DNA from: Cirrosporium novae-zelandiae | Lineage: Eukaryota | DNA: 64,000 nt | Reading direction: 5' to 3' | Assembly: GCA_026023565.1 (NCBI GenBank) | Contig: JAPETS010000047.1 | Location: 62,001-126,000 of the forward strand | Shown here: piece after piece, positions 6,342-63,672 of the stretch | Numbering within the stretch: position 1 is the first letter of the stretch | Layout: each line of letters begins with the position of its first letter | Made by a program: the position numbers and the translations under genes | The notes under the pieces: generated by a model | Seen by the model: only the letters and a program-made list of their open reading frames with translations | Told to the model about the DNA's origin: nothing | The model's database searches: none

Positions 6342-8015
6342 GATTTTCCACGACTGATGAGATGGTGAAAAGCTGAGGAACGAACATTTTAAAGGAAGAG
6401 ATTATCAACAGTAGTCGTAGTAGCTGCAGCTGAAGCCGAAGCTCGGGAAACCAGTCGGTCGGTCATTTGAATAGATACATTTCGGTGAATTAGACTAGGT
6501 GGCGTTGAAGAGTACTAATTAAACAATAATTACTGAGTAGACTATTACCGACACCGAGTTACTTTACCAAAGCACAAGTAATTAATTAGTGCTTGTAAAG
6601 AAAAACAATACCCCGCGCTTCGGCTTTTTGAATGTCCGTCACCGAGCCAAGGAAATACCCGATAGCGGACCAGATATTCCGATGACCGATGCCATTGAAA
6701 AGTAATTCATTAATTCATTAATTACTGAAGCCTGAGGCATCCAGAACAGCCGTTGAGCCATTCATGTCTTGGCAGGGGTAAGACCCTTATCATTTGTCTC
6801 CAATTAACTTTTCAAGTCACTGCAACTTTCAGGTCGGTAAGCACTACTTCTGTTGATACAACCACTCTCCCCTTGAACTTCTCTCATGATTCATGACTCG
6901 TTAGAGATATTATGTTACCAGCAAGCCAAGATTCTAAATATGGTGGTTAATGGTCTGCAGGAAAAACAAAACCAGCATTCTCATAACTGCTAGAGGAGGT
7001 ACAGTACAACCCATCAGCCTTGGGCAGGCATCATGGATTTACAGAAGCCCCCTCACGGGGCCTCTTGTAGCTACAAAAGCCCATTTCTTGTGACCGTTCG
7101 GTTTCAGGCCGTTGGACTATTCCTCAATACATGCCAACGTGAATCGTGGTATTAAACCATGTTATCCACAATCGCGACATCATGCAATCAGGAAATTAAA
7201 TATCTGATGTTTTTTGAAGAATTTTCTTGAGCGTGTTTGATCCTGCAAAAATCTAGCTGCTTGTTCTGGCGTGTGTGTTCTGTACATGTTCATCTGGTGT
7301 CGCTTCGTGCCGTCCCTCTCATCCTTCATCGCCCACACCACCTCACCCCACACCCCTTTGATTAAATCCCTGCCGAGGCTGTAATGTTTGGTTTTCAGGA
7401 CTTAATGACAATCTAACTATTGTGCCAGATCGGATTGAATTAACCATATACTGATGCCAAGAACCGAAATAGGCGTGCATCTCAAGATAACCAAAACAAG
7501 CGTTCCTAACGGATATGGAGTTTCAATTGGGCCTATGAGTCGATCAATGCCGAAATTCTGATATCTGATTGGATCGAGGACCTTGATATCCATCTACATC
7601 CTTTGCCGCTCATCCTTCTTGATGGTTGCATCACCATTTTATTTTATTTGTGCTTCTTGGGTTAGTAGTAGCAGAGGGGATAATACATGGCATTGGACTG
7701 GTAATAGATTGCAGTAAGAGTCGCGGGAAATAATTAGTGCTTATCACAGTGCGGGTTTTCGAAAATGTACATATATCCCTTGGATTAGATCTCTATGCAT
7801 TGTTTTGGAGAGCATACCTTCAATCGTTCACTTCAACTTCATCTGAGCCTCGCCATTCTTTCGAGGCCTTGGATCTTTTTTCAATTGCTTCAATTGATAC
7901 ACTCTCTTTCACAAACATTCAAATTCTTGTCCACTCATTAAACCAGCCAATCCTTCAAGTAACCACTTACCCATTCATTCATTCATTTAAATCACATTCC
8001 TTTGCAAATGCCAAC

Positions 8016-9721
8016 ATGATGGTCAAACCAAAGCTCATCACTCCCCTCCTTTTCACGCTCTTCACCCTCAGCACCGCCTGGATCCCAGGAGTCGACAAGC
8101 AGATCACCTCCAAATCTGGCACCAACCGCTTCAACCGGACCTCACTCCTCTCCCAAAACATCACCAGCACCACCAACTCCACTCGAAACCGCAAACGCTG
8201 GCTTCCCTACACCCTCCCAATCCGGGGTGTAAATCTCGGCTCCCTCTTCGTCTTTGAGCCCTGGCTTGCCGAAACAGAATGGACCCGCATCGGATGCGAA
8301 GGTAAAAACTCGGAGTTTGATTGCGTTTCGGCTCTAGGCCAAACGGCTGCGAATACTGCTTTCCAGGATCATTGGTCTCAGTGGGTCACCGAGGATGATT
8401 TCGTGCTCATGTCGAACTATGGATTGAATACCGTCAGGATCCCGGTGGGGTACTGGATGGATGAGGATATTGTGTACAGTGATAGTGAATATTTCCCGCA
8501 AGGGGGACTCGCGTACTTGGAGCAGGTGTGTGGATGGGCGAGCGATTATGGATTTTATATTATCATTGATTTGCATGGGGCGCCGGGGGCGCAAGTTGCG
8601 ACGAATGCGGATACCGGACAGGTAAGTATTTATCTATAGTGGTTGCGGGATTCTTTGCCTTGCTCGTTTGTCTTACTTTGTTTTTTTTCTTGAATTAGTA
8701 TGCGTCAACTGCTGGATTCTACGTCGACTATCAGTATGAACGAGCTCTCAAATTCCTTGAATGGATGACGAACATTATTCATTCCAACGACAACATGCGG
8801 AATGTCGGCATGATCGAGATTGTGAATGAGCCGATCCAGGACGCGGAAACGGTGCAGACGATGAGGGAAAGTTATTACCCGGATGCTTTTACTGTAAGTC
8901 AGACATCATTTCTTTCGCTTTTGCAGAACATGAAAATTCAGAGAAATCCATACCTTCTCAACTTCCTTACCTTCAACCCTATCCTATCTTACCCTGACCG
9001 CCTCACTAACACATCTCCCACCCCAGCGAATCCGGGCTGCAGAAACTGCTCTCGGTATAACAAGCAATGATTATTTGCACATCCAAATGATGAACACAAA
9101 ATGGGGATCCGGCTCTCCGTCCGAATATCTCACCGACGACTATTTCGCGGCCTACGATGACCACCGCTACGTGAAATGGGACAGCTCGGTCACTGTTTCT
9201 CAATCCAGCTATTTATCCAACTCTTGCAATGATGATCGCGGGGGGGATTCGCCTACTATTGTCGGAGAGTGGAGTTTGAGTCCACCAGATGATGTTGAGT
9301 GGGTAAGTTGATTGACCGGTCTTGGCCTTTTTGGTGTGGTTGAAGGAGGTTGTGTTTTGGCGTTAACAGAGAATTACAGACAACCGACTGGAATCCCAGC
9401 ACCCATGAATCATTCTACCAGAACTGGTATGCCGCGCAGGTGATGACATATGAGAAGCAAGATGGATGGGTCTTCTGGGCTTGGAAATCTCAACTCGGGG
9501 ATTATCGCTGGTCATATCAAGGTTAGTTGTCTTAACTCATTCTGTATCCCCTACCATGTCATCTTAACCCGTTGAATCATGAGAACTCTGCGGATAATTA
9601 GAAAGCCATGAAGGTTTGGGTTTGGTTTTGCTAACCTGATACGATAGATGCCGTTTCCGCTGGGGTTATTCCGACGGACATTGATGATGTTTATGACTGG
9701 GGGTCGTGCGATGGGTATTGA
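8016..9721 (+). CDS. secreted glycoside hydrolase family 5, probably endo-beta-1,6-glucanase type (GH5_15/ExgB-like), multi-exon
   Basis: Signal peptide and KR pro-site. Motifs [31 protein letters not shown], acid/base NEP, nucleophile [13 protein letters not shown]. Introns follow GT-AG. Confidence 0.9.
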
Positions 9722-14739: not shown

Positions 14740-16105
14740 ATTCTTAAAGTTTGTTCCTGGATATTTGTAAATTCACCAAGGGAGAAAACGGTTCTGCTAG
14801 ATGGATGGTATGCTCTGGTCTGCCTTTTATCACATCTGTCAGCATTGTGGTCAATAAATACTATTCCAAATAACTTTTAGGCTTGAAGCTCAGCCTAGAT
14901 CTAGACAAAAGATTAAGAATTGATTGTTAGCCATGTTTTCGGTAGCAATAAGCTGATTTGATGAAAATATAGACGTAGCTACGAGTATTAGAGATTTCGT
15001 AACAGTGATAGGATGGATATGTATATGACTTGGGTGGCTTAAAGCTTGAAAAGATGACATCCAGTTGAAAGTGAATCTGCCAGCCATGTAATATACAGAC
15101 TGCAAAAGGGTTTCTCTACAGTACCTGATAGACTAATACATTGCTGGATGAGGGTAAGTAATGGGGCAGAGATAGAGTAGAAGTAGGCGGGGGGGGGGGG
15201 GGTTAAGGCGGCGCGGGGTAAACGCCCTCTTGGCGCTAAGCCTCGGGCGGGGCCTGGAGCATATTTTATACATATCTACCTACTCGAGTAGGTATATCTA
15301 CATAGGTATATCTACATAGGTATCCACAGCACTATTTATTACACGATATAACTTTCATAATTTTGACCCATCCCATTACTATCGTCAAGGCTGACTTTTG
15401 TGTTTACTGTGCGTGTTAATCATGTTCGTGAACAATATAAATAAACACCCATCCATCTAGCGTTTTCAGTGTCAGCGTTGGAAACTCAATCGCCCTCACT
15501 CCGCCCTTTCGGTCTTGTCACTATTTTCATCTCAGTGAAGGTAGGGCCGAATGATTCATGGCACATTCATTTTTGGATGGTAGACCCACAAACTACTAAT
15601 TCTCAACCATCTTGTTTCTAGCCAGAAAGGCCGAGGAATCCCTTCTTTTGAATCATGTATATTGACTAGCTGTTTAGATGGAGAAGGTACAACTATCCTT
15701 TTCTCTCCTTTCTCTCTTCTTTATTTTTTTCCATTCGTGGCATTCTTTCTTCTCCAATTTAAGTGTTTGATTTCAGAGCTGGTGGTAAGATGACCCGTCA
15801 CAAACCCTTTCACGGATGATTATCGAAAGACCTGCTAACAAAGCTTCCTAGGTCTCCAACTTATGCTATTCGTTTTCTATTATATATCATTTGAAATATA
15901 TCCCCACCGCCTTCTGTCGCCCCAAACATAACTTCTCCTATTCCACTCTCTAGTCCAGGCCCAGAACAACTGAACAGCTATCTAAACACAAGGTCCTTGC
16001 TCTGATCGCCCTGAGATAACGAAGTCTAAGTTTGACGGCTACTTGCAGAACTTATAACTGCCCAAGTTATACCGAGCATACGTCCAAGAACAACTGCCAA
16101 ACATC

Positions 16106-17137
16106 ATGGCATTAACAGTCTCCCGATCATCGTCCAGGACACCTCCATCCAATCGTAACAACAGTGATTCTACGCATCCAGGGGAGTCACTCGAATGGCT
16201 CTATTGGGCTGAATACGATCTATGGATTCAGATCCCACTAAACTGGGACCCCAAAAATTTGGAATGTTTCTTTTGTAGCTATGACCCGTACCATAACGTG
16301 CGACGGAAGTATAGCTGCCACAAATACTCGGATATTGGTTCCTTGAATTTTCGTCCGGCAGAGGGTTACGCCGACTTACGCTCTTTTTCTGTTCCTGCAA
16401 AGCGCTGGAAGAAGAATGAGGCAAAATATTTCCGTTTTCGTGCTGTACGTGAGGGCGATTTGGGGCGAGAATACTATAAACTCGTGGACATTTTGTGCAA
16501 GGGTGATTATTTTAGGAGACTGCCATCAAACCCTCACAAGGCACTCACCTCCAGCCGAACCAAGATAATCCGTCATCAGACCAACGGATTGACCCCGGCA
16601 ACACCTCGTCGTCCCTGGAACTACAAACTATTTCCGCTCCTCAACCACCCCCAATTTGTTCTTCGGTGCTGCAAGAATTGTGCGTTTGATCAGACGGTGG
16701 CGATATGGAACAGACGTGATATGTGGAATGAAGCACAGACTATAGCTCCACTGCCTTGTCGGTTCCCTCATCATCACTCTCACCGTTATGGAAGCCGGGA
16801 AATTCCGAATTTCGTGGTAAGACGAAGGAGAGCACTGAAGAAACTGGCCGATGATTTTGATTACCACTCCGGTTACGATTCAGGTTACGATTCAGGTTAC
16901 GATTCAGGTTACAGCTCGGATCACGACTCAAATCACGAATCAGGTGGCCCCCCCAGTTCCCTTCCCGGTCCTAGTTCTACGGCTACTGGGACAGCAAATA
17001 ATCCCAATAATATTTCGACCATGCAGGATGTGGTTGCCCTTCGCAGCGAGGATGATGCGAGAAGACTGGTGGATCACGCACAGAGGACCCCCTCACGCTA
17101 TACCAGGATGCCCTCTCCTATGACGAGATTTTTTTGA
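16106..17137 (+). CDS. hypothetical 343-aa protein
   Basis: Long uninterrupted ATG-initiated ORF with good start context (ATCATGG). Internal (YDSG)n 12-bp repeat at 16871-16912. No recognised domain. Confidence 0.6.
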   Translation: MALTVSRSSSRTPPSNRNNSDSTHPGESLEWLYWAEYDLWIQIPLNWDPKNLECFFCSYDPYHNVRRKYSCHKYSDIGSLNFRPAEGYADLRSFSVPAKRWKKNEAKYFRFRAVREGDLGREYYKLVDILCKGDYFRRLPSNPHKALTSSRTKIIRHQTNGLTPATPRRPWNYKLFPLLNHPQFVLRCCKNCAFDQTVAIWNRRDMWNEAQTIAPLPCRFPHHHSHRYGSREIPNFVVRRRRALKKLADDFDYHSGYDSGYDSGYDSGYSSDHDSNHESGGPPSSLPGPSSTATGTANNPNNISTMQDVVALRSEDDARRLVDHAQRTPSRYTRMPSPMTRFF

Positions 17138-50261: not shown

Positions 50262-50899
50262 CTACGGAACCAATTCGACCTTATCAAGCATGCTCCACGT
50301 TGGCACCTTCTTCGGATCATACCCTCCTTGTCCATCGAACCGGTGTTCTCTCTTCTTCTTGTTAGAATACCACATGGCAGTATCGCGCACGATATCCCAA
50401 TCAGTCGCAGACGTCCCCAAAGCTTTTTCATCCTGCGTAAGCCGATCCAAGGCTTCCTTTATCCATTCAACACAGTTCCAATGATCGTAACCAGGCTGGC
50501 CAGCGCGGACTGGAGTCGCTTCCAAGACCGATTTGAGTCGCTTCATATTTTTGACTTTGCCGATTAAGATTCGGACGAGGAGCATAGCTGTTGGCTCAAG
50601 CGTGATTTTGCGCTCTTCATATTCCCACGTTGATTGCAATGACTGCGCGTCTAATGACATTCTGTTTCTAACATCGAAACGCGTGCCTCTCTCGCCTTCG
50701 TCAGGCTCGATTTTGGGGCCAACAATAAAGGCCCAGTGATACCTGTGAAGGTTTAGAAAACCTTTCGATGATGGATGGTCTGTCTCCTATCCCCTTAGGC
50801 CATGAGCGTTTTAACTTACGTATCTTCTAGACCTGGCATTTTTGGTGCCCCGCCACGGGCATGAAGGGCAATGTAGAGACGATCTTTATTAGAATTCAT
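50262..50899 (-). CDS. conserved fungal hypothetical protein (DUF6914-like), 2 exons
   Basis: MNSNKDRLYIALHARGG...YHWAFIVGPK...LLVRILIGK...WNCVEWIKEAL...VPTW. The His and WNC-Cys motifs are typical of this family. Confidence 0.78.
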
Positions 50900-53802: not shown

Positions 53803-54531
53803 TCAACTATCACCATGTATTGGGCATGATATTCTACTTTTCGCACAACACCACTTTTGAATGCAATGCGCATGCCAGATACACAACCTTCCGCAGGGCG
53901 ATCTCCCCAGTCGTTGCCCAACTTCAAACTCTTCAAGACATATAACACAATCCCGACCATTGAGCTCATCAGAACAATCCTTCCATGTTGCAGTAAAAAA
54001 CTTCAAAGCTAGTGAGCGAGGATGAGTAAAAGCAGGTTGGATATGTCTAAAAGATAGTTCCGTTAACCTGGGCATTCCGTTCCCCACAAATTCCGCTCCC
54101 GCCCTTGAACTCGTGTTGGTGCCCGATGGCGGGGTCAAGCTGGTATCCGAATCATCCGTATCCTCCGTCAAATCAATATAGGTAGCTCTACGGGGTAGCT
54201 AAGGCGACCGGGGTCGTAGAAACAATTGATTAGATCGAGGTTATCTATCCTGTAGTTCTCCATCGTCCGACGAAACAACGATGACCTCTGCTCTTTCTTG
54301 CTGGGGTGGCCTGACTCGTCGTCCCGAATTTATGTGATCCTCTTCCCTTTCTGAGCGGCCCCTCTTCCTCCTTGGGTTGTTCCTTTCGTTTTCACTCTCT
54401 CATAGAGTACGCTCCCTGCTTTGGCCGTTGTTATTGAGGTGGACTAATGGGCGACGATTATGATTGTGTCTGACACTTGGCTCTGGTGCGAGAAGGCACT
54501 GGGGGAAAGGGGGCAGGTGGCTCGACGGCAT
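53803..54531 (-). pseudogene. disrupted RING-H2-type ubiquitin ligase gene with SIM-like motifs
   Basis: One frame from ATG 54531 to CVICLEEFEVG...C...C-WH--CI--W...CP-H. It is interrupted by in-frame TGA (54402-54400), TAA (54243-54241) and TAG (54201-54199). Confidence 0.65.
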
Positions 54532-55112: not shown

Positions 55113-56675
55113 CTAAACCTTTTCAACCTCCTTCGACGATCCACCAGCAACTTCTTTAATATCATCTTTTCTTTGCGGCACAACCTCTGAGTTGCCTTTC
55201 TCCTCCCTCGGAATCTCGTCTGCCGGAAACACATGCGTGGCCCACTGCTTAACAGGCACCTTGTCCTGGAAGAACAGCTCCACCTCCAGGGTTGATCTAC
55301 CAGTAGTCTCCCCAACGCAGAACCATACATATGCTAGGGTGATGCAGGTTGTCCCTGCATACACAAATCCAAGCATCGGACCTAGATTGGCAGAGTAATA
55401 GAGGTAAGGCGAAGTGAAGACCATGGCCCAGACGGTGAAGAAGAAAGACACGAAGGCGCAGGACATGATCTTGCTGCGGTTCCTTCCCGCCGCAGCTTCT
55501 CCAGCAACAGTATAGGCAAGGGGTCCGAGGCCAAAGTTGAAAGCGACAATGACAGCGTAGGAGAAGACGACAATGGTAGTGCTGTAGGCTGTTGTCATGG
55601 TTTCGGGGATCCCGAGGCCGCCAACAACGATGAGGGCGATGAACATGATGAGCGATGTGATCAGCAGGTTCTCACGCCTGGGTACCTTGTTACCCAGCAG
55701 GACGGAGACGCCGACGGAGATGACTTGAAGGACGTTTGTGATGAGAGATATGGTAAAGGGTTCGGCCATACCGATGGATTCGGCAAAGACGACTCCGTAA
55801 GAATAGAAAAATTGAATTCCGTTGATCTGTTGTGCTACCATGGAGCCGCAGGCATAGAGGACCTTGCGTCGCTCTATGGGGTCTTTCACGAGGGAGATCC
55901 ACGTAGATTGGCTGGCCTCCACTCTCTCGTTTTCTACAGCTAGGCTAAGAGCCTCTATATCTAGCGCAGGATCATAGTCTTTTTCGCCTCTGTGGATTTT
56001 CCTTAAGGATGCAGCCGCCTCTTGGATCTTGTTCTTACCGACAAGCCAAACGGGACTCTCAGGAAGGAATGGAAGGCCCATCAGCATGCACAAAGGTAAA
56101 AACCCCAACAATCCCATCGGAATCCGAAAGGAGGCGGTAGAGGAAATGCCTTCAGTCCCCTGCGTGATTGCCGATCCAACAAGCTGAGAGCACGATTGCA
56201 TAAACTGAAACATCATCGTTGCGGGGCCGCGGATATCTTGCGGAGCAACCTCCCCGATATACAAGACGCAAGTCACCGTGAATTGACCGATGCCAAGGCC
56301 AATAAGGATACGTCCGAAGCAAATGAGACCTTCGTTACCATTATCGGCGATCTGAACAATCGCTCCAGCGATGATGAAAATGGAAGCACAGAAGAAGACT
56401 CCTTTTCGTCCGAAGTAATCGTTTATGGGAGCGGCGAGCAGGGCTCCGCAGAGTTCGCCGACGTAAATAATTGATGCGGTCAGAGATAGAAAGGAGGTTG
56501 TCAACGCGATTTTGCCAGTCGAGTCCCGAGTAGTGCCGTAGAGGTTGATGAAGGGCCTCATGCCTTGAAGGCCGGTGTAATAAATCTGATCATAGCCGTA
56601 GCAGAGGGCACCGAGGGTAGAAATGGCACAGAAGAAGATGGCCCATTTGTGTTTGGTGAGGGTGGTTTTGAACAT
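55113..56675 (-). CDS. sugar porter (MFS), maltose/alpha-glucoside-permease-like, intronless
   Basis: YGYD, DYFGRK, GEVAP--RG, PESPVWL, QQINGIQF and GETTGRST-EVE. About 12 TM segments. ATG context CAAAAAATG with upstream TATATAAAA. Confidence 0.92.
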   Translation of the reverse strand: MFKTTLTKHKWAIFFCAISTLGALCYGYDQIYYTGLQGMRPFINLYGTTRDSTGKIALTTSFLSLTASIIYVGELCGALLAAPINDYFGRKGVFFCASIFIIAGAIVQIADNGNEGLICFGRILIGLGIGQFTVTCVLYIGEVAPQDIRGPATMMFQFMQSCSQLVGSAITQGTEGISSTASFRIPMGLLGFLPLCMLMGLPFLPESPVWLVGKNKIQEAAASLRKIHRGEKDYDPALDIEALSLAVENERVEASQSTWISLVKDPIERRKVLYACGSMVAQQINGIQFFYSYGVVFAESIGMAEPFTISLITNVLQVISVGVSVLLGNKVPRRENLLITSLIMFIALIVVGGLGIPETMTTAYSTTIVVFSYAVIVAFNFGLGPLAYTVAGEAAAGRNRSKIMSCAFVSFFFTVWAMVFTSPYLYYSANLGPMLGFVYAGTTCITLAYVWFCVGETTGRSTLEVELFFQDKVPVKQWATHVFPADEIPREEKGNSEVVPQRKDDIKEVAGGSSKEVEKV

Positions 56676-57091
56676 TTTTTGCTGCGTCAAGAACGAGTCA
56701 GAAGAGACGATTGGATTCCAAGTCTGAGGAGAAGGAGGAGAAGGAAGTTGATGAATATATCAGTTTTACTGATTGATATCGCTCATGGACCTCGGTGGCT
56801 TTTATATAGAGAGAAGATCTAATTAAAAAATAGAACCTATTTGCATTCGTTCCAAGCTCTCTAGTGAAAGGACGAATCATCCTCCAAATATAGTAGCACA
56901 AGTTTGCGGGGTTTGCGGGGGGGGGGGGTGGGGACTTGGTTTACTTTGCTGCTATAATACCACAGAAAGAATCATTTCTGAGCTGGAGAATCCACATTCA
57001 GATCATATGTCTGTACTAGAGTAAGAGTAAAATATTGCCTCGTTCCTTGCGATCGGGGAGGAGAGGGATAGGGGGATGGGGGGGGGCTATC

Positions 57092-58232: not shown

Positions 58233-59380
58233 ATGTCCGATAAGCCTACCACTACCAACACCTTAGAAGCCATTAGGGCCACTGGCACAGTTCTCATAGC
58301 CGATACGGCGAGTTTTCGGGGTTAGGGACCTCCCATTTTATAATCCATTTATGATAGATTAATATAACTAATATATGCTATATGCTATACTCTAGAAATT
58401 TCACGCTTCCATCCCTCTGAAGGAACAACCAATCCCTCCCTCCTCTACGCAGCCGCGCAACAGCAGCAGCAAGCCTACTCTACTTTTCTCGACCGCACGG
58501 TCCAATATGCTAGATCTTTATCACCAGTGTCATCGCCTTCCGAGTGTCTCTCACTTGCCGTGGAATTCCTCTCCGTCCAGTTTGGTACGGAAATTTACAA
58601 GATCACCGGCAGAGTTGCCACCGAGGTGGATGTCTCGTACTCCTTTATGAGCGAGAAAACGGTGGAGGCTGCCCTGAGGGTCATTGAGCTCTATGCTAAA
58701 GAAGGGGTTCCTAAGGATGCGGTGCGTATCAAGATTAGTGCCACGTGGGAAGGGATTCAGGCTGCGAGGATTCTGGAGCGCGATTATGGTGTTAGTGTTT
58801 TGGTGACTATTGTTTTTGGCATGGTTCAGGCGATCACGGCGGCGGAGGCGGGGGTGAGTTGTATTGCGCCCTATGTTGGGCGCATTGATGATTGGCACAA
58901 GGCGCGTGGGTTTCAGGGGGCGGATATGGGGGTTCAGAGGGTGAAGGATATGCAGAATTATTTGCGCAAATATGAGTTCCGGACGAAGGTTATGGCTGCT
59001 AGTTTTCGGAATATAGAGCAGGTCAAAAGGCTTGCTGGATTGGATCTGCTCACGGTAGCGCCGGGGATCTTGGATCAATTGGAAAAGTGTACGGACGATG
59101 CTCCACCTCAGTTGACGGTGGAAAGCGGTAAGACGTCTTTCTTCGATTTCTTCTAGGATAATTGTGGCATTTCTTTCATCACCGGCGCATTGCTAACCAT
59201 TGAGCAGCTAAAGCGGCTGAACTCCCGGAGTTATCATATATCAATGATGAAGGCGCTTTCAGATGGGCCTTCAACTGGGATGCCTGTGCGGTGGAAAAGT
59301 CAGCAGAAGCCATGAGACTCTTTGCCGAGGATACGGATCGTCTCAAAGCCTTGCTGGCGAGCATGATTACGAGTACCTAG
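58233..59380 (+). CDS. transaldolase-family class I aldolase (330 aa, 3 exons) with FSA-like residues
   Basis: Exons 58233-58320, 58396-59127 and 59208-59380 total 993 nt in frame. Motifs ADTA, TTNPSL, TEVD, Schiff-base RIKISATWEGI, IAPYVGRI, MAASFR and C-terminal E--FRW--N-D--AVEK. Confidence 0.93.
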
Positions 59381-59956: not shown

Positions 59957-61195
59957 ATGCCGTACATTGTTGGTCTCAACAGCGGTTCATCTTTTGACGG
60001 CGTCGATGCTGTCCTTTGTTCAATTGACTTTGCCCCCGACGGTCATCCTGCGCGTCCCAAGTATATTTCTGCCTTGACAGTCGACTGGCCTGAAGAGCTT
60101 TGCCCTCTTATTTTGAGAGCTTTCAATAACACTCTCACCCTTTTCGAACTGTGTCGCCTCAATTATGCCGCCGGAGCCGTATACGCCGAAGCAGCAAATA
60201 AATTATTAGCTCAAGCTGGGCTCAAACCTGAAGATATTGATGTGGTTGGATACGACGGACAAACAATTTACCAGGAGCCTGTCGACAAAACAAAAGTCAA
60301 AGAGTACGAGCAGAGCGGAAATAAGAGCTTGGTAGAAATGTGGACCAAAGGTGGTTTTCCATGTGGACTTTTCATTGTGGAATCAGGCGTCGTTGCCGCC
60401 CTAACCCAAATTACCACTGTTACACAATTTAGACCGGTTGACCATGCACTTGGTGGCTCTGGTGCACCGTTGATGCAATATCTTGACTTTGTTGCTTTCC
60501 GCGATGAAGGTCCTGTCGTGACGTTGAATATCGGCGGTATTGCAAACCTGCAGTTGGCAGATGCTGACCGTAATAAAATGATGGCATTTGACACAGGCCC
60601 TGGAAATGTCATGATTGATCATGTCGTCAAAACAAGAACTGGACGTGGATATGATAAGGATGGAGAATTGGCGGCTAAAGGGACTGTCATCGAACCATTA
60701 TTAGAATACCTGAATAGTCACCCATTTTTTACCCGAAGTCCTCCCCGATCAGCATGGAGATTGGATTTCGGAGCTGACTTTGCGGATCGTATTTTAAAAG
60801 AATACGGTTCTACATCAACTGAAGACCTATTGGCAACATTCACTACATTTACAGCACAATCAATTGAACGATCGTTTGTAGATTTCGTTCTGCCAAAAGC
60901 GCCTGTCACCAAACTTATTGCCAGTGGTGGAGGTACACGGAATGCAACCCTGATGAAAAATTTAAGCCAAAGACTGGCGGTGCACGGAGTCAAGACACGC
61001 TTAAGTGATGATTTTGGTCTTCCGGCGGCTTATAAGGAAGCTATCAAGTTTGCAACGTTGGCCTTTGCTGCAAAAAATGGTTTGGCCAACAATATTCCCG
61101 CAGCTGGAGGCGCTTCATCCTTTGCGGTACTTGGGAAGTTGAGTTTGGCACCGCGGCTTGCGAAGCTCGGAGATTCTCCAGTTAATGGTAAGTGA
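59957..61195 (+). CDS. AnmK / levoglucosan-kinase family anhydro-sugar kinase (divergent), intronless
   Basis: GLNSGSSFDGVD, GQTI, FR--D---GG-GAPL, NIGGIAN, FDTGPGN--ID, YDKDG, GGG--N, KEA and LGK. Confidence 0.93.
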   Translation: MPYIVGLNSGSSFDGVDAVLCSIDFAPDGHPARPKYISALTVDWPEELCPLILRAFNNTLTLFELCRLNYAAGAVYAEAANKLLAQAGLKPEDIDVVGYDGQTIYQEPVDKTKVKEYEQSGNKSLVEMWTKGGFPCGLFIVESGVVAALTQITTVTQFRPVDHALGGSGAPLMQYLDFVAFRDEGPVVTLNIGGIANLQLADADRNKMMAFDTGPGNVMIDHVVKTRTGRGYDKDGELAAKGTVIEPLLEYLNSHPFFTRSPPRSAWRLDFGADFADRILKEYGSTSTEDLLATFTTFTAQSIERSFVDFVLPKAPVTKLIASGGGTRNATLMKNLSQRLAVHGVKTRLSDDFGLPAAYKEAIKFATLAFAAKNGLANNIPAAGGASSFAVLGKLSLAPRLAKLGDSPVNGK

Positions 61196-61456
61196 TGAAT
61201 CTAAATCAACCATCAGCTGAAAAAAGCTAAACAAGGGAGCAGGAGTACCTAAAACGGATTCAAATGGTATTGATGGGGCGCACACAGTTTGACCGATTAA
61301 TGCAATGGTGTACACTGAAGACATACCTCCGCTCTCTTAGCTATAAGATAGTTCAGCTATATAGAATTGTATTTCTTTTCACTTCAACAAGACTGAAGTT
61401 TGGCGAGGGCCCTTTCTAATCGTACTGGAAAGCACACGATCCTCTCTATTAGACCA

Positions 61457-63672
61457 TCATACTTGTAAAAAGTTATGTCGTATATTCTGGAATATCATAA
61501 GAGCATCATGTGAAACCGGAGAATCTTTGGCGCTCTTGCTCAATATTTCTTCTGACACATGAATTAGTTCCTCTATCGCGTTCGGGTCTCCGCAATCACG
61601 GAGGAGCCAAAAGAGTGAGGGAGTAGCTTGAGCTAGAATCAGTGCCATTCCGGCGGCCATAAGACTATTGGGGCCAAATTAATTGGGCTATTCACAATCA
61701 CTTCTGAATTGACCAAGGGATATTATCACTTACGTCTGCAGTTCAATCCAGCTGCAAGATGACGTAAAGCATAGCCTTGTTCCCTGTCGATTTGGCTGCT
61801 GCTCTTCGATTCTCTTGCAAGTTAGTACGATGAGGGCAGCACTCTGTAGACATCTGCGGCAAGACTCGAACAACCAAAAGGTTGACGGATAGTCTTCTCG
61901 AGTATCCGCTAAGCGGGATGCCGAAAGCTCGAGGTCTTCATGCGCTAGATAATATAACATTGGCCGATGAAGAAGGAAACTGCAGGTGTAATAACGTAAT
62001 GCTAGGCTCTGAGAAAGTATTTATCAGTACCTTTAATCCAGGTTCCTACCACAAAAGAAGCTGGGTGCCTACGAGGACATTGTAAGAATTGATTTGAGAC
62101 GAAGTAGATTCTCTGGCACTGGAAACATCCTTTGGAAATTTAAAAAGAGGAGGTTGTCGATGATACCATTCATCCAGTCGGCTTTCTTGGAGAGTGACCA
62201 TCTGCATAATATCTCGTGGATGGCAATAGGCTTGATCAATGGTATAAAGCTCGCTCAGGGTTCGGTTCAAGTGAATCCTCAGCCAAATGTGGGCGGTCAT
62301 AGTATTGGTATCCAATGAAGGCAAATATGGCGACGGGATGCTATTAGGCAATAAAAGCCCACTACTAAGTCTCTCTGATATTTCTGAACTCGTCGGTGAG
62401 GGAGTCCCATCAACATGAGTCAGAAAATCACTTGATAAAGTGATATCAGCAATTTCAGCAAGACCATCCAACAGATTTAAGATATCCTTACCTTTCCTGC
62501 AGAAAATGAATATTCAAACAAGCTGGCCAATGTGCTGGAATAGTCAGATCCTTCCAGCCCCTTGAAAGCTGTCAACCAAATGGTGATATCAATACGGGAG
62601 AGGCGTAAACCCCATAATAAACAACCTAAATCTTACCTTTTAGCCCTCCTAGCAAGTCTATCACCAACCATCTCGATCATCCGAAGCGCATGATGTGGTC
62701 GTAGAAAACATATTGAGAAAATAATCACTGTAACTTGAAGTATGGGAATTGCGGTTTCATCAGGAAGAAAGTTTACCTTCCAAAAATGGGAGAGGGCTAT
62801 CCTGAAGCATGTATCAAAAGAGGCAGAAAGCGAAAAGCCCTGGTAGTTGGCAATGATAATTGACTCCTCAAATCGAGCTTGATGGAGCGCAATTGTCAGG
62901 ATTAAGAGTTCTTGGACTGAGCAAGCCGTCAACTGAAGCTGAACTTCGCCACCATCGATGCTTTGTGGGGGACAACGAGACCGCATGAGAGTCAGAATTT
63001 CATTCCGAGATATGGGAGAGCAATGATGTAATAGCTCCAGCAGGTCAATGCCCAAATCTGTAGCCTCAAAAAGCGCCTCAACACTAGCGATGGCCGAAGA
63101 AAGAGGAATGGTTGGTGAGCCATTCAGAGAGTTCCTCGTATCGACATCAAATGGATGGGCTTGTTCGGTGCGTTGAAGGTATTGCAGAGGCTCTATATTC
63201 GGAAGCGTAAGACATAGCCGGATTCTTGGCCAACATTGCGGCATTCGAAAGGTAGCCGCTGTATGAAGCTCTGGGAAGTGTGGATTCGGAGGAGAAATGT
63301 CACTGGTGGTTGAAAGAGTGCTGGGAAGCGGAACAGGGCTGGAGTGAGAATCTCCAATGCCATGGGCATCCAGATTGTCCAGTCGAGTTTCAATGCGATT
63401 GAGGCGAGCTAGGATATTGCCATCACTATATGGATAGAATGCTTAGTACATTCCATATCCTGAAAAGTAAACAACTGCAGCGCTCTAGTTGACAGGTATT
63501 CATACTTCTCAAGCAATGTTAGGGTCGGTCGGTAGACACAAGTTTTACCGGCGGCCTCACAATGGGAGCAGGTTGGTCGTCGTCCATCACATCTAGACTT
63601 TCTCGCCCGACAGATATCGCAAGCTAAGGAAGCTTTGAACTTCTTTCCAGGAGGAGGTGTACTGCTTGACAT
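61457..63672 (-). CDS. Zn(II)2Cys6 transcription factor, multi-exon
   Basis: ACDICRARKSRCDGRRPTCSHCEAAGKTCVY. Exon 2 gives a ILARLNRIETRLDNL coiled coil in frame with the 63244-62633 ORF, followed by fungal TF middle-region exons. Confidence 0.9.

Follow-up and report, generated by a model that had tools for sequence, protein, structure and literature searches.

We analysed a kinase gene and its neighbours in a stretch of 64,000 nucleotides from Cirrosporium novae-zelandiae (contig JAPETS010000047.1, positions 62,001 to 126,000), which is called the window here. The open reading frame (ORF) that a preliminary description of this DNA had assigned to the AnmK family was present on the forward strand. 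Its 412-residue product matched PF03702 (AnmK) over residues 3-395 with E = 6.1e-74 and 249.7 bits, against a Pfam cut-off of 24. A transaldolase-family gene, an MFS sugar transporter and a Zn2Cys6 regulator lay around it, so that the window held a four-gene cluster (Table 1). The ORF product was 100% identical to a deposited protein, which was a hypothetical protein of a metagenome-assembled C. novae-zelandiae (Pezizomycotina, class Xylobotryomycetes). Joining the two exons, join(59957..61187, 61243..61292), gave 426 amino acids and reproduced the deposited protein exactly. The gene had been described as intronless. This was correct for the catalytic part, but not for the gene, for which a canonical 55-nt intron was predicted near the 3' end in line with the deposited 426-residue model. 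The in-frame stop codon at 61193-61195 lay inside the predicted intron, and translation would end there if the intron were retained. These results suggested that the catalytic domain is free of introns and that the kinase gene as a whole probably is not.

Table 1. Features of the kinase cluster and its surroundings in the window. Positions are nucleotides of the window, except for the kinase motifs, which are given in residues of the protein.
Feature	Position	Strand	Description
Kinase ORF	59957..61195	+	uninterrupted, 412 amino acids
Kinase exon 1	59957..61187	+	entire catalytic domain; residues 1-410 and first base of codon 411
Predicted spliceosomal intron, 55 nt	61188..61242	+	GTAAGT donor, CTAAC branch site, CAG acceptor
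Kinase exon 2	61243..61292	+	short non-conserved C-terminal tail and stop codon
Kinase motif SGSSFDG	residues 9-15
Kinase motif YDGQT	residues 99-103
Kinase motif QFRPVD	residues 157-162
Kinase motif GGSGAPL	residues 166-172
Kinase motif DTGPGN	residues 212-217
Kinase motif PRSAWRLDF	residues 263-271
Kinase motif KEAIKF	residues 360-365
TalB-type transaldolase-family gene	58234..59380	+	three exons, borders approximate; largest exon within ORF 58368..59156
MFS sugar transporter	55113..56675	-	Pfam Sugar_tr 2e-80; divergent from the transaldolase gene
Zn2Cys6 transcription factor	62046..63672	-	several ORF pieces with introns; Zn_clus 8.2e-12 (63409..63672)
DUF6914 protein	50262..50786	-	Pfam 1e-58
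Small RING-finger protein	53803..54198	-	

The kinase was then compared with the characterised members of its family. All the motifs that had been quoted for it were found, and the family forms given for comparison were those of the solved enzymes. In the alignment with levoglucosan kinase (LGK), the counterparts were SGTSMDG, SHGQT, DFRISD, GRQGAPL, DTGPGN, PKTTGREVF and KEAITF. Conservation was measured in the query and its 120 closest homologues listed (n=121), which were 63-77% identical to the query besides one identical record. The named sources among these homologues were Pezizomycotina and one Lipomycetaceae yeast. SGSSFDG and YDGQT were each kept in 117 of the 121 sequences, and PRSAWRLDF and KEAIKF in 115 each. 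Among 150 diverse representatives of the family, SHGQT occurred in 104 and YDGQT in 5. This meant that the altered motifs were clade markers and not noise. The insertion reported after GQT was also borne out, and it proved to be a clade character by the spacing between GQT and FRxxD. All 24 fungal rows had a spacing of 54, and 30 prokaryotic rows of the clade had 51-55. The median for 112 members elsewhere in the family was 38, and E. coli AnmK had 32.

The residues of the active site were examined in an alignment of 35 clade sequences, where they were matched to the LGK and AnmK motifs and their roles were taken from PMC10570956 (Table S2). The catalytic D212 and the Mg-binding E361 were invariant, and the phosphate loop S9-D14 was invariant or nearly so. 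The DTGPGN motif and the nucleotide-side residues were thus kept, as had been described, with a Thr-to-Ser change in the phosphate loop. The suggestion of an active enzyme was supported at the level of sequence. In the P. aeruginosa enzyme (PaAnmK), Thr11 contacts the phosphate, Thr97 the acetyl group, and Arg129 and Leu142 the lactyl group, while Asp182 serves as the general base with a contact to O4, and Glu326 binds Mg (PMC10570956, Table S2). Lys234, Gly237 and Arg238 make contacts with the anomeric hydroxyl, the ring oxygen and the transferred phosphate (same table). That paper describes two mobile elements that close over the site, namely loop 229-241 and beta-hairpin 96-110. Correspondences with PaAnmK were assigned by motif, the alignments at hand being those with LGK and Shewanella AnmK. 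The PRSAWRLDF segment aligned with the motif bearing Lys234, Gly237 and Arg238. The change from PKSTGRE to PRSAWRLDF replaced Lys by Arg, Gly by Trp and Glu by Leu in this lid loop. The insertion began after the GQT threonine (Thr97 of PaAnmK), at the site of the mobile beta-hairpin. It appeared from these alignments that both mobile lids over the sugar site have been remodelled, with the catalytic and nucleotide-side residues kept. The earlier phrase "rewired substrate-side motifs" was therefore fair, since the differences fell in the two mobile elements over the sugar site.

Structure modelling, which the preliminary description had proposed, gave a high-confidence AlphaFold model with a fold like those of AnmK and LGK (mean predicted local distance difference test score 90.8, predicted template-modelling score 0.89). 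In Foldseek, the model matched AnmK 3cqy with template-modelling (TM) scores of 0.83/0.92 and LGK 4yh5 with 0.81/0.78, which was consistent with the two-domain ASKHA fold. The inserted residues were predicted to form two helices, 111-120 and 125-130.

The query and AnmK had the Pfam family, the fold and the catalytic Asp in common, as well as the Glu that binds Mg and the phosphate loop. It differed in having PRSAWRLDF for PKSTGRE, YDGQT for SHGQT, QFR for DFR and GGSGAPL for GGQGAPL. Its segment after GQT exceeded those of the family median and E. coli AnmK by 14-22 residues, with two helices in the model where PaAnmK has a beta-hairpin. LGK of Lipomyces starkeyi (PDB 4yh5, 4zlu) is also fungal and of the same family, and it aligned over the full length, including the N-terminal half. 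Its chemistry may be expected, by analogy, to match that of the query. However, LGK kept the canonical motifs. The Foldseek identity of the query was 29% to LGK and 28-33% to AnmKs. In phmmer, the query gave 144 bits to wild-type LGK, 130-165 bits to AnmKs and at least 338 bits to full-length clade members. The query was about equally distant from LGK and AnmK. Two profiles, from 35 clade members and 45 canonical members, were scored against the PDB. For wild-type LGK, the clade profile gave 225 bits and the canonical one 387 bits; for the AnmKs, they gave 223-247 and 344-388 bits, respectively. LGK and AnmK were grouped with the canonical forms on these scores, and the query clade was placed apart from both. 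LGK ranked below the 150 family representatives listed. None of the 14 matched NCBIfam AnmK equivalog models reached its cut-off, the best being NF007148 with 339.7 versus 387. PMC10570956 names AnmK and LGK as the only two anhydro-sugar kinases with a mechanistic study.

Trees were built with FastTree (182 sequences) and IQ-TREE (78 sequences). LGK was in neither and was placed by the profile scores. The clade was recovered in both trees with 100% support on a long stem of 0.68-0.71 substitutions per site, and it held all the sequences with the xDGQT and PRSAW motifs. The proposal of a distinct clade was supported in this way, as a subfamily split from the canonical AnmKs by a long branch, with LGK on the canonical side (387 versus 225 bits). 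Nesting within the characterised LGK clade had been named as an outcome that would speak against this proposal; by the profile scores, the query did not nest there. The sequence comparison suggested that the query lies outside the characterised LGK lineage.

The first branch inside the clade held metagenome-assembled genomes of acidophilic Bacillota and one Thermoplasmata archaeon. The remaining sequences (97% support) fell into three parts: the fungi as a single monophyletic clade (98% support), a group of bacteria, and two representatives of unknown origin. Among the bacteria were Shinella (plasmid-borne), Acidisoma, Roseiarcus, Agrobacterium tumefaciens pAt15955 and a Klebsiella pneumoniae plasmid. 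Cladophialophora immunda had two kinase copies, which lay in separate parts of the fungal clade. When the trees were rooted on the canonical AnmKs, the fungal clade nested among prokaryotes. This was the pattern expected of a prokaryote-to-fungus transfer, which was thus supported. The bacterial origin considered in the preliminary description gained support from this nesting, but the absence of introns was lost as a ground for it, since a short 3' intron was predicted. The codon composition was also examined. The GC content at third codon positions was 0.39 for the kinase (59957..61187), 0.59 for the transporter (55113..56759), 0.58 for the transaldolase (58398..59135) and 0.42 for a piece of the transcription factor. 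A recent transfer was not supported by composition, as the kinase value was below those of the neighbouring transporter and transaldolase and far from its high-GC bacterial relatives (overall GC 0.56-0.70). The branching within the fungal clade departed from the fungal classes, as the Lipomycetaceae yeast Limtongia smithiae grouped with Sporothrix. The mismatch between the fungal subtree and the species tree suggested paralogy or fungus-to-fungus transfer.

The genes around the kinase were compared between the window and other loci. The start Met of the transporter in the window (56675) was inferred from the stop-to-stop frame 55113..56759. The Zn2Cys6 gene was convergent with the kinase gene, and its product is likely the regulator of the pathway. 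A metagenomic fungal contig (L007) with a 77% identical kinase carried all four cluster genes in a different order. The identity of its transcription factor to that of the window was 51% in the zinc cluster and 27% in the middle region (Zn_clus 3e-09). A truncated contig (L012) carried transporter, transaldolase and kinase, ordered as in the window. Orthologues of the transporter thus stood beside the kinase in both contigs. Two large eukaryotic contigs (L032, 10001..11185, and L033, 2625..3809) contained a kinase copy with 75% identity whose coding sequence was broken up among three frames, with no transporter, transaldolase or regulator within 10 kb of it. The two contigs are probably from one organism, and the frameshifted copy is likely a pseudogene or an assembly error. 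In the window, genes for a DUF6914 protein and a small RING-finger protein lay upstream of the cluster and had no evident link to it.

The neighbourhoods of bacterial homologues, whose inspection had been recommended, showed sugar transporters and TAL/FSA genes in place of MurQ. One Bacillota genome (G001) was informative in having both a clade member and a canonical AnmK. The operon of its canonical AnmK (L045, G001:C4, 3743..12569) had the classical layout for recycling. It contained an RpiR-type regulator, a peptide-type ABC transporter and a MurQ-like SIS protein, together with AnmK, a NagB-like protein, a GNAT acetyltransferase and a member of the beta-lactamase family. In contrast, a LacI regulator and a ribose-type sugar ABC transporter preceded the clade kinase of the same genome, and a TAL/FSA gene and a xylulokinase followed it. 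MurQ-AnmK fusions occurred among the canonical AnmKs. No SIS/MurQ gene was found in the Pfam-scanned neighbourhoods of clade members, which in the loci examined adjoined sugar transporters and TAL/FSA genes and never MurQ. The Thermoplasmata genome had the clade form only, and Thermoplasmata are a group without murein. The contrast within G001, the MurQ fusions of the canonical forms and the occurrence of the clade form alone in Thermoplasmata argued against anhydro-N-acetylmuramic acid as the substrate. Since sugar transporters and FSA-like aldolases took the place of the MurQ etherase, a different anhydro-sugar, as suggested earlier, was plausible from the gene context and from the presence in Thermoplasmata.

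Other loci showed further arrangements. The K. pneumoniae plasmid (NZ_CP057068.1; L042, 12001..15700) carried kinase, MFS and GntR genes, followed by an IS903B transposase and more insertion sequence elements, and this module on a conjugative IncF plasmid appeared to be mobile. A LacI-MFS-kinase module was found in L010. The L011 kinase was 98% identical to a Shinella yambaruensis plasmid protein. Its flanking genes (7832..8686, 15496..16515) encoded a TIM-barrel protein like SMc04130 (343 bits to 3ju2) and a 1,5-anhydro-D-fructose-reductase-like protein (395 bits to 2glx). This locus linked the clade to another kind of anhydro-sugar metabolism. It was also considered as a levoglucosan-dehydrogenase locus, which was rejected because the GFO/IDH/MocA protein gave 395 bits to anhydrofructose reductase and 75 to levoglucosan dehydrogenase (6a3f). 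PfkB and FGGY kinases were found near the clade kinase in Agrobacterium, L034 and L001.

The association with TAL/FSA genes was surveyed by tblastn with four TAL/FSA queries in the window and all the collected loci with a kinase match (42 sources). A TAL/FSA gene was found near the kinase in 12/42 sources, at a distance of 185-1263 nt, and 11 of the 42 were too short to judge. The linked loci were those of acidophilic Bacillota (L001-L005), fungi (the window, L007 and L012) and high-GC bacteria (L015, L018 and L026), and L041, which is Agrobacterium pAt15955 with the annotated order tal-lacI-kinase-binding protein. The scaffolds were of the long TalB type in the fungi and Agrobacterium, and of a divergent short FSA type elsewhere (80-135 bits versus a cut-off of 246). 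Because the scaffolds differed between the four lineages, the association appeared to have been assembled more than once. The transaldolase of the window matched Pfam TAL_FSA with 4.8e-56, plus a C-terminal piece with 0.007. Its best solved match was yeast YGR043C with 198 bits over 246 residues, which was unusually divergent. It was eukaryote-like and 37% identical to the Agrobacterium tal product.

The 12 neighbours were aligned to E. coli K-12 TalB (S176-P-F178) and FsaA (A129-P-Y131). The Schiff-base Lys was present in 12/12, and a Tyr was present at the TalB Phe178 column in 10/12. The proteins of the window, L007 and L012 had Ala-Pro-Tyr at Ser176-Pro-Phe178 of TalB and retained the TalB-type Glu96. 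A Gln was found at the Glu96 column in L001-L005, L015, L018 and L026. According to PMC3962226, the F178Y mutation alone is enough to make TalB a dihydroxyacetone-dependent aldolase whose efficiency equals that of FSA, and the donor preference is shifted by S176A. The window neighbour thus shared the Schiff-base Lys and the Ala-Pro-Tyr triad with FsaA, whereas it had a long TalB scaffold with Glu96 where FSA is short (about 220 amino acids) and has Gln. From its residues, the fungal neighbour resembles the engineered TalB F178Y/S176A, of which it would be a natural counterpart, more than a member of the short FSA subfamily. In none of the 12 linked loci was an isomerase gene found in the interval separating kinase and aldolase gene. 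The kinase orthologues of Pleurostoma richardsiae and Fusarium mexicanum (2/120 listed homologues) were named "Transaldolase" and had the AnmK domain only; fused transaldolase-kinase proteins were found in 0/5 matches.

From these observations we infer a catabolic function, to which we give about an even chance. The kinase would be an anhydro-sugar kinase of a prokaryote-derived subfamily that acts on a 2,omega-anhydro-ketose, yields a ketose phosphate and belongs to a four-gene catabolic cluster. The MFS transporter would import the anhydro-sugar. By analogy with AnmK and LGK, the kinase would carry out the committed step, in which water activated by Asp212 opens the anhydro bridge and the freed primary hydroxyl is phosphorylated with ATP. 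The product would be a D-threo ketose phosphate, either fructose-6-phosphate or sedoheptulose-7-phosphate. The Tyr-type TAL enzyme would then form a Schiff base at C2 of this product and cleave it to dihydroxyacetone and an aldose phosphate, and the Zn2Cys6 factor would control the gene set. A ketose-phosphate product was proposed because the recurrent neighbour bore the signature of fructose-6-phosphate aldolase and, with no isomerase gene found in that interval of the linked loci, would act on the product directly. Such a product would imply a 2,6- or 2,7-anhydro-ketose as the substrate. Extended to the whole clade, this would define a third specificity class of 2,omega-anhydro-ketose kinases that, with a Tyr-bearing transaldolase, provide a two-enzyme route to dihydroxyacetone and erythrose-4-phosphate or glyceraldehyde-3-phosphate. 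We put this extension forward as a tentative possibility, well short of an even chance.

Two conversions are candidates, namely that of sedoheptulosan to sedoheptulose-7-phosphate and that of 2,6-anhydrofructofuranose to fructose-6-phosphate. Sedoheptulosan is attractive because it has the same bicyclic skeleton as a 1,6-anhydropyranose, the anomeric carbon bearing an additional hydroxymethyl group. Acid converts sedoheptulose into sedoheptulosan (2,7-anhydro-sedoheptulose), and this would suit the acidophile hosts. On the Biolog FF plate it is a standard carbon source, and its use varies among fungi. Published results are negative for 16 A. niger isolates and 3 Neoarthrinium moseri strains and positive for one Fusarium, which is a lead only. 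The alternative, 2,6-anhydrofructofuranose, would be in line with the GH32 gene next to the L013 kinase. It would also fit the ABC transporter and carbohydrate kinase beside the clade kinase in Agrobacterium, which we take to be of the fructose type.

Several points weigh against the proposed ketose route. Of the loci in which at least one flank reached 3 kb, 19 had no TAL/FSA gene. Two of the linked neighbours, those of L026 and Agrobacterium, had Phe at the TalB Phe178 column and looked like ordinary transaldolases. Minimal modules of regulator, transporter and kinase only occurred at many loci, for example on the Klebsiella plasmid and in L010, and therefore the product must be usable without a dedicated aldolase; if it were fructose-6-phosphate, it would need none. 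The genes adjoining the kinase also included the 1,5-anhydro-D-fructose-reductase-like protein of L011, the GH32 enzyme of L013 and GMC oxidoreductases (L019, L034). Thr103 and Arg159, the counterparts of the acetyl- and lactyl-binding residues of PaAnmK, were kept in the clade. In addition, the splicing and expression of the kinase gene are predictions from the sequence, and no enzyme assay of any clade member was found in open PubMed Central full texts and bioRxiv.

The minimal modules would be consistent with a product that is already a central metabolite. This would be the case if the enzyme were a kinase of levoglucosan or another 1,6-anhydro-aldohexose (mannosan, galactosan) with an independent, bacterial-type origin, giving a hexose-6-phosphate, with the TAL/FSA enzyme boosting the downstream flux. 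The fold was about as close to LGK as to AnmK (4yh5, TM 0.81, 29% identity). Levoglucosan, mannosan and galactosan are the anhydro-sugars tracked in biomass burning, according to that literature. Close relatives of the kinase occurred in Shinella and on the Klebsiella plasmid, and levoglucosan-degrading isolates of both genera are mentioned in PMC10066097. However, the same paper states that the bacteria studied so far use a dehydrogenase route and that fungi reportedly use the LGK route only. The L011 oxidoreductase did not resemble levoglucosan dehydrogenase but anhydrofructose reductase, as scored above. LGK retained every canonical motif that was altered in the clade and fitted the canonical profile far better, and a hexose-6-phosphate would leave the repeated recruitment of FSA-type aldolases unexplained. 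We consider this explanation unlikely.

The anhydrofructose-reductase-like and SMc04130-like genes of L011, the PfkB and FGGY kinases near other clade members and the strong divergence of the sugar-side motifs would also agree with a kinase or other ASKHA-fold enzyme acting on a non-anhydro substrate. Such a substrate could be an ordinary ketose or a 1,5-anhydro-hexitol or -fructose derivative, or the activity could be an undescribed one. The DTGPGN motif supplies the Asp that in AnmK activates the water for ring opening; this Asp was invariant, whereas an ordinary kinase would have no reason to retain it. In addition, 1,6-anhydro sugars are the substrates of both family members characterised so far. 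This made a non-anhydro substrate quite improbable. The database names point instead to a true anhydro-N-acetylmuramic acid kinase, with which the fungi would scavenge bacterial cell-wall fragments. The idea of peptidoglycan recycling is attributed to a computational paper on fungal AnmK-like kinases, as cited in PMC10570956. The conserved Thr103 and Arg159 would suit this function, but they were not diagnostic because LGK also retained the counterparts of both. The equivalog cut-offs were not reached in NCBIfam, and the sugar-contacting lid motif was rewritten. The Pfam-scanned clade neighbourhoods lacked MurQ, whereas the canonical paralogue of G001 adjoined one, and the clade was present in an archaeon of a group without murein. 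Taken with these points, an anhydro-N-acetylmuramic acid kinase was very improbable, the least favoured of the explanations weighed here.

The names "anhydro-N-acetylmuramic acid kinase" and "transaldolase" on the fungal kinase genes are thus probably wrong. Within the literature searched, no paper was found on a substrate of this family other than anhydro-N-acetylmuramic acid and levoglucosan, nor on a kinase of a ketose anhydro-sugar. Fungal AnmK-like genes were already known as a category. The subfamily, its cluster and its Tyr-type partner were not found in that literature and were new within it.

The established substrates of the family are anhydro-N-acetylmuramic acid and levoglucosan only. 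A large third branch in fungi, bacteria and archaea, with rebuilt lids and a neighbourhood of its own, suggests that one more anhydro-sugar takes part in natural carbon cycling. The results also describe a well-supported gene transfer from prokaryotes to Pezizomycotina, followed by the assembly of a native fungal cluster. To our knowledge, the natural role of FSA-type aldolases is still unsettled, and the pairing of the kinase with Tyr-type TAL/FSA enzymes offers a concrete hypothesis on the natural job of these aldolases. If the proposed ketose route is true, it would give FSA-type aldolases a physiological job, with a eukaryotic example on the TalB scaffold, and it would explain why the sedoheptulosan well of Biolog FF supports the growth of some fungi and not of others.

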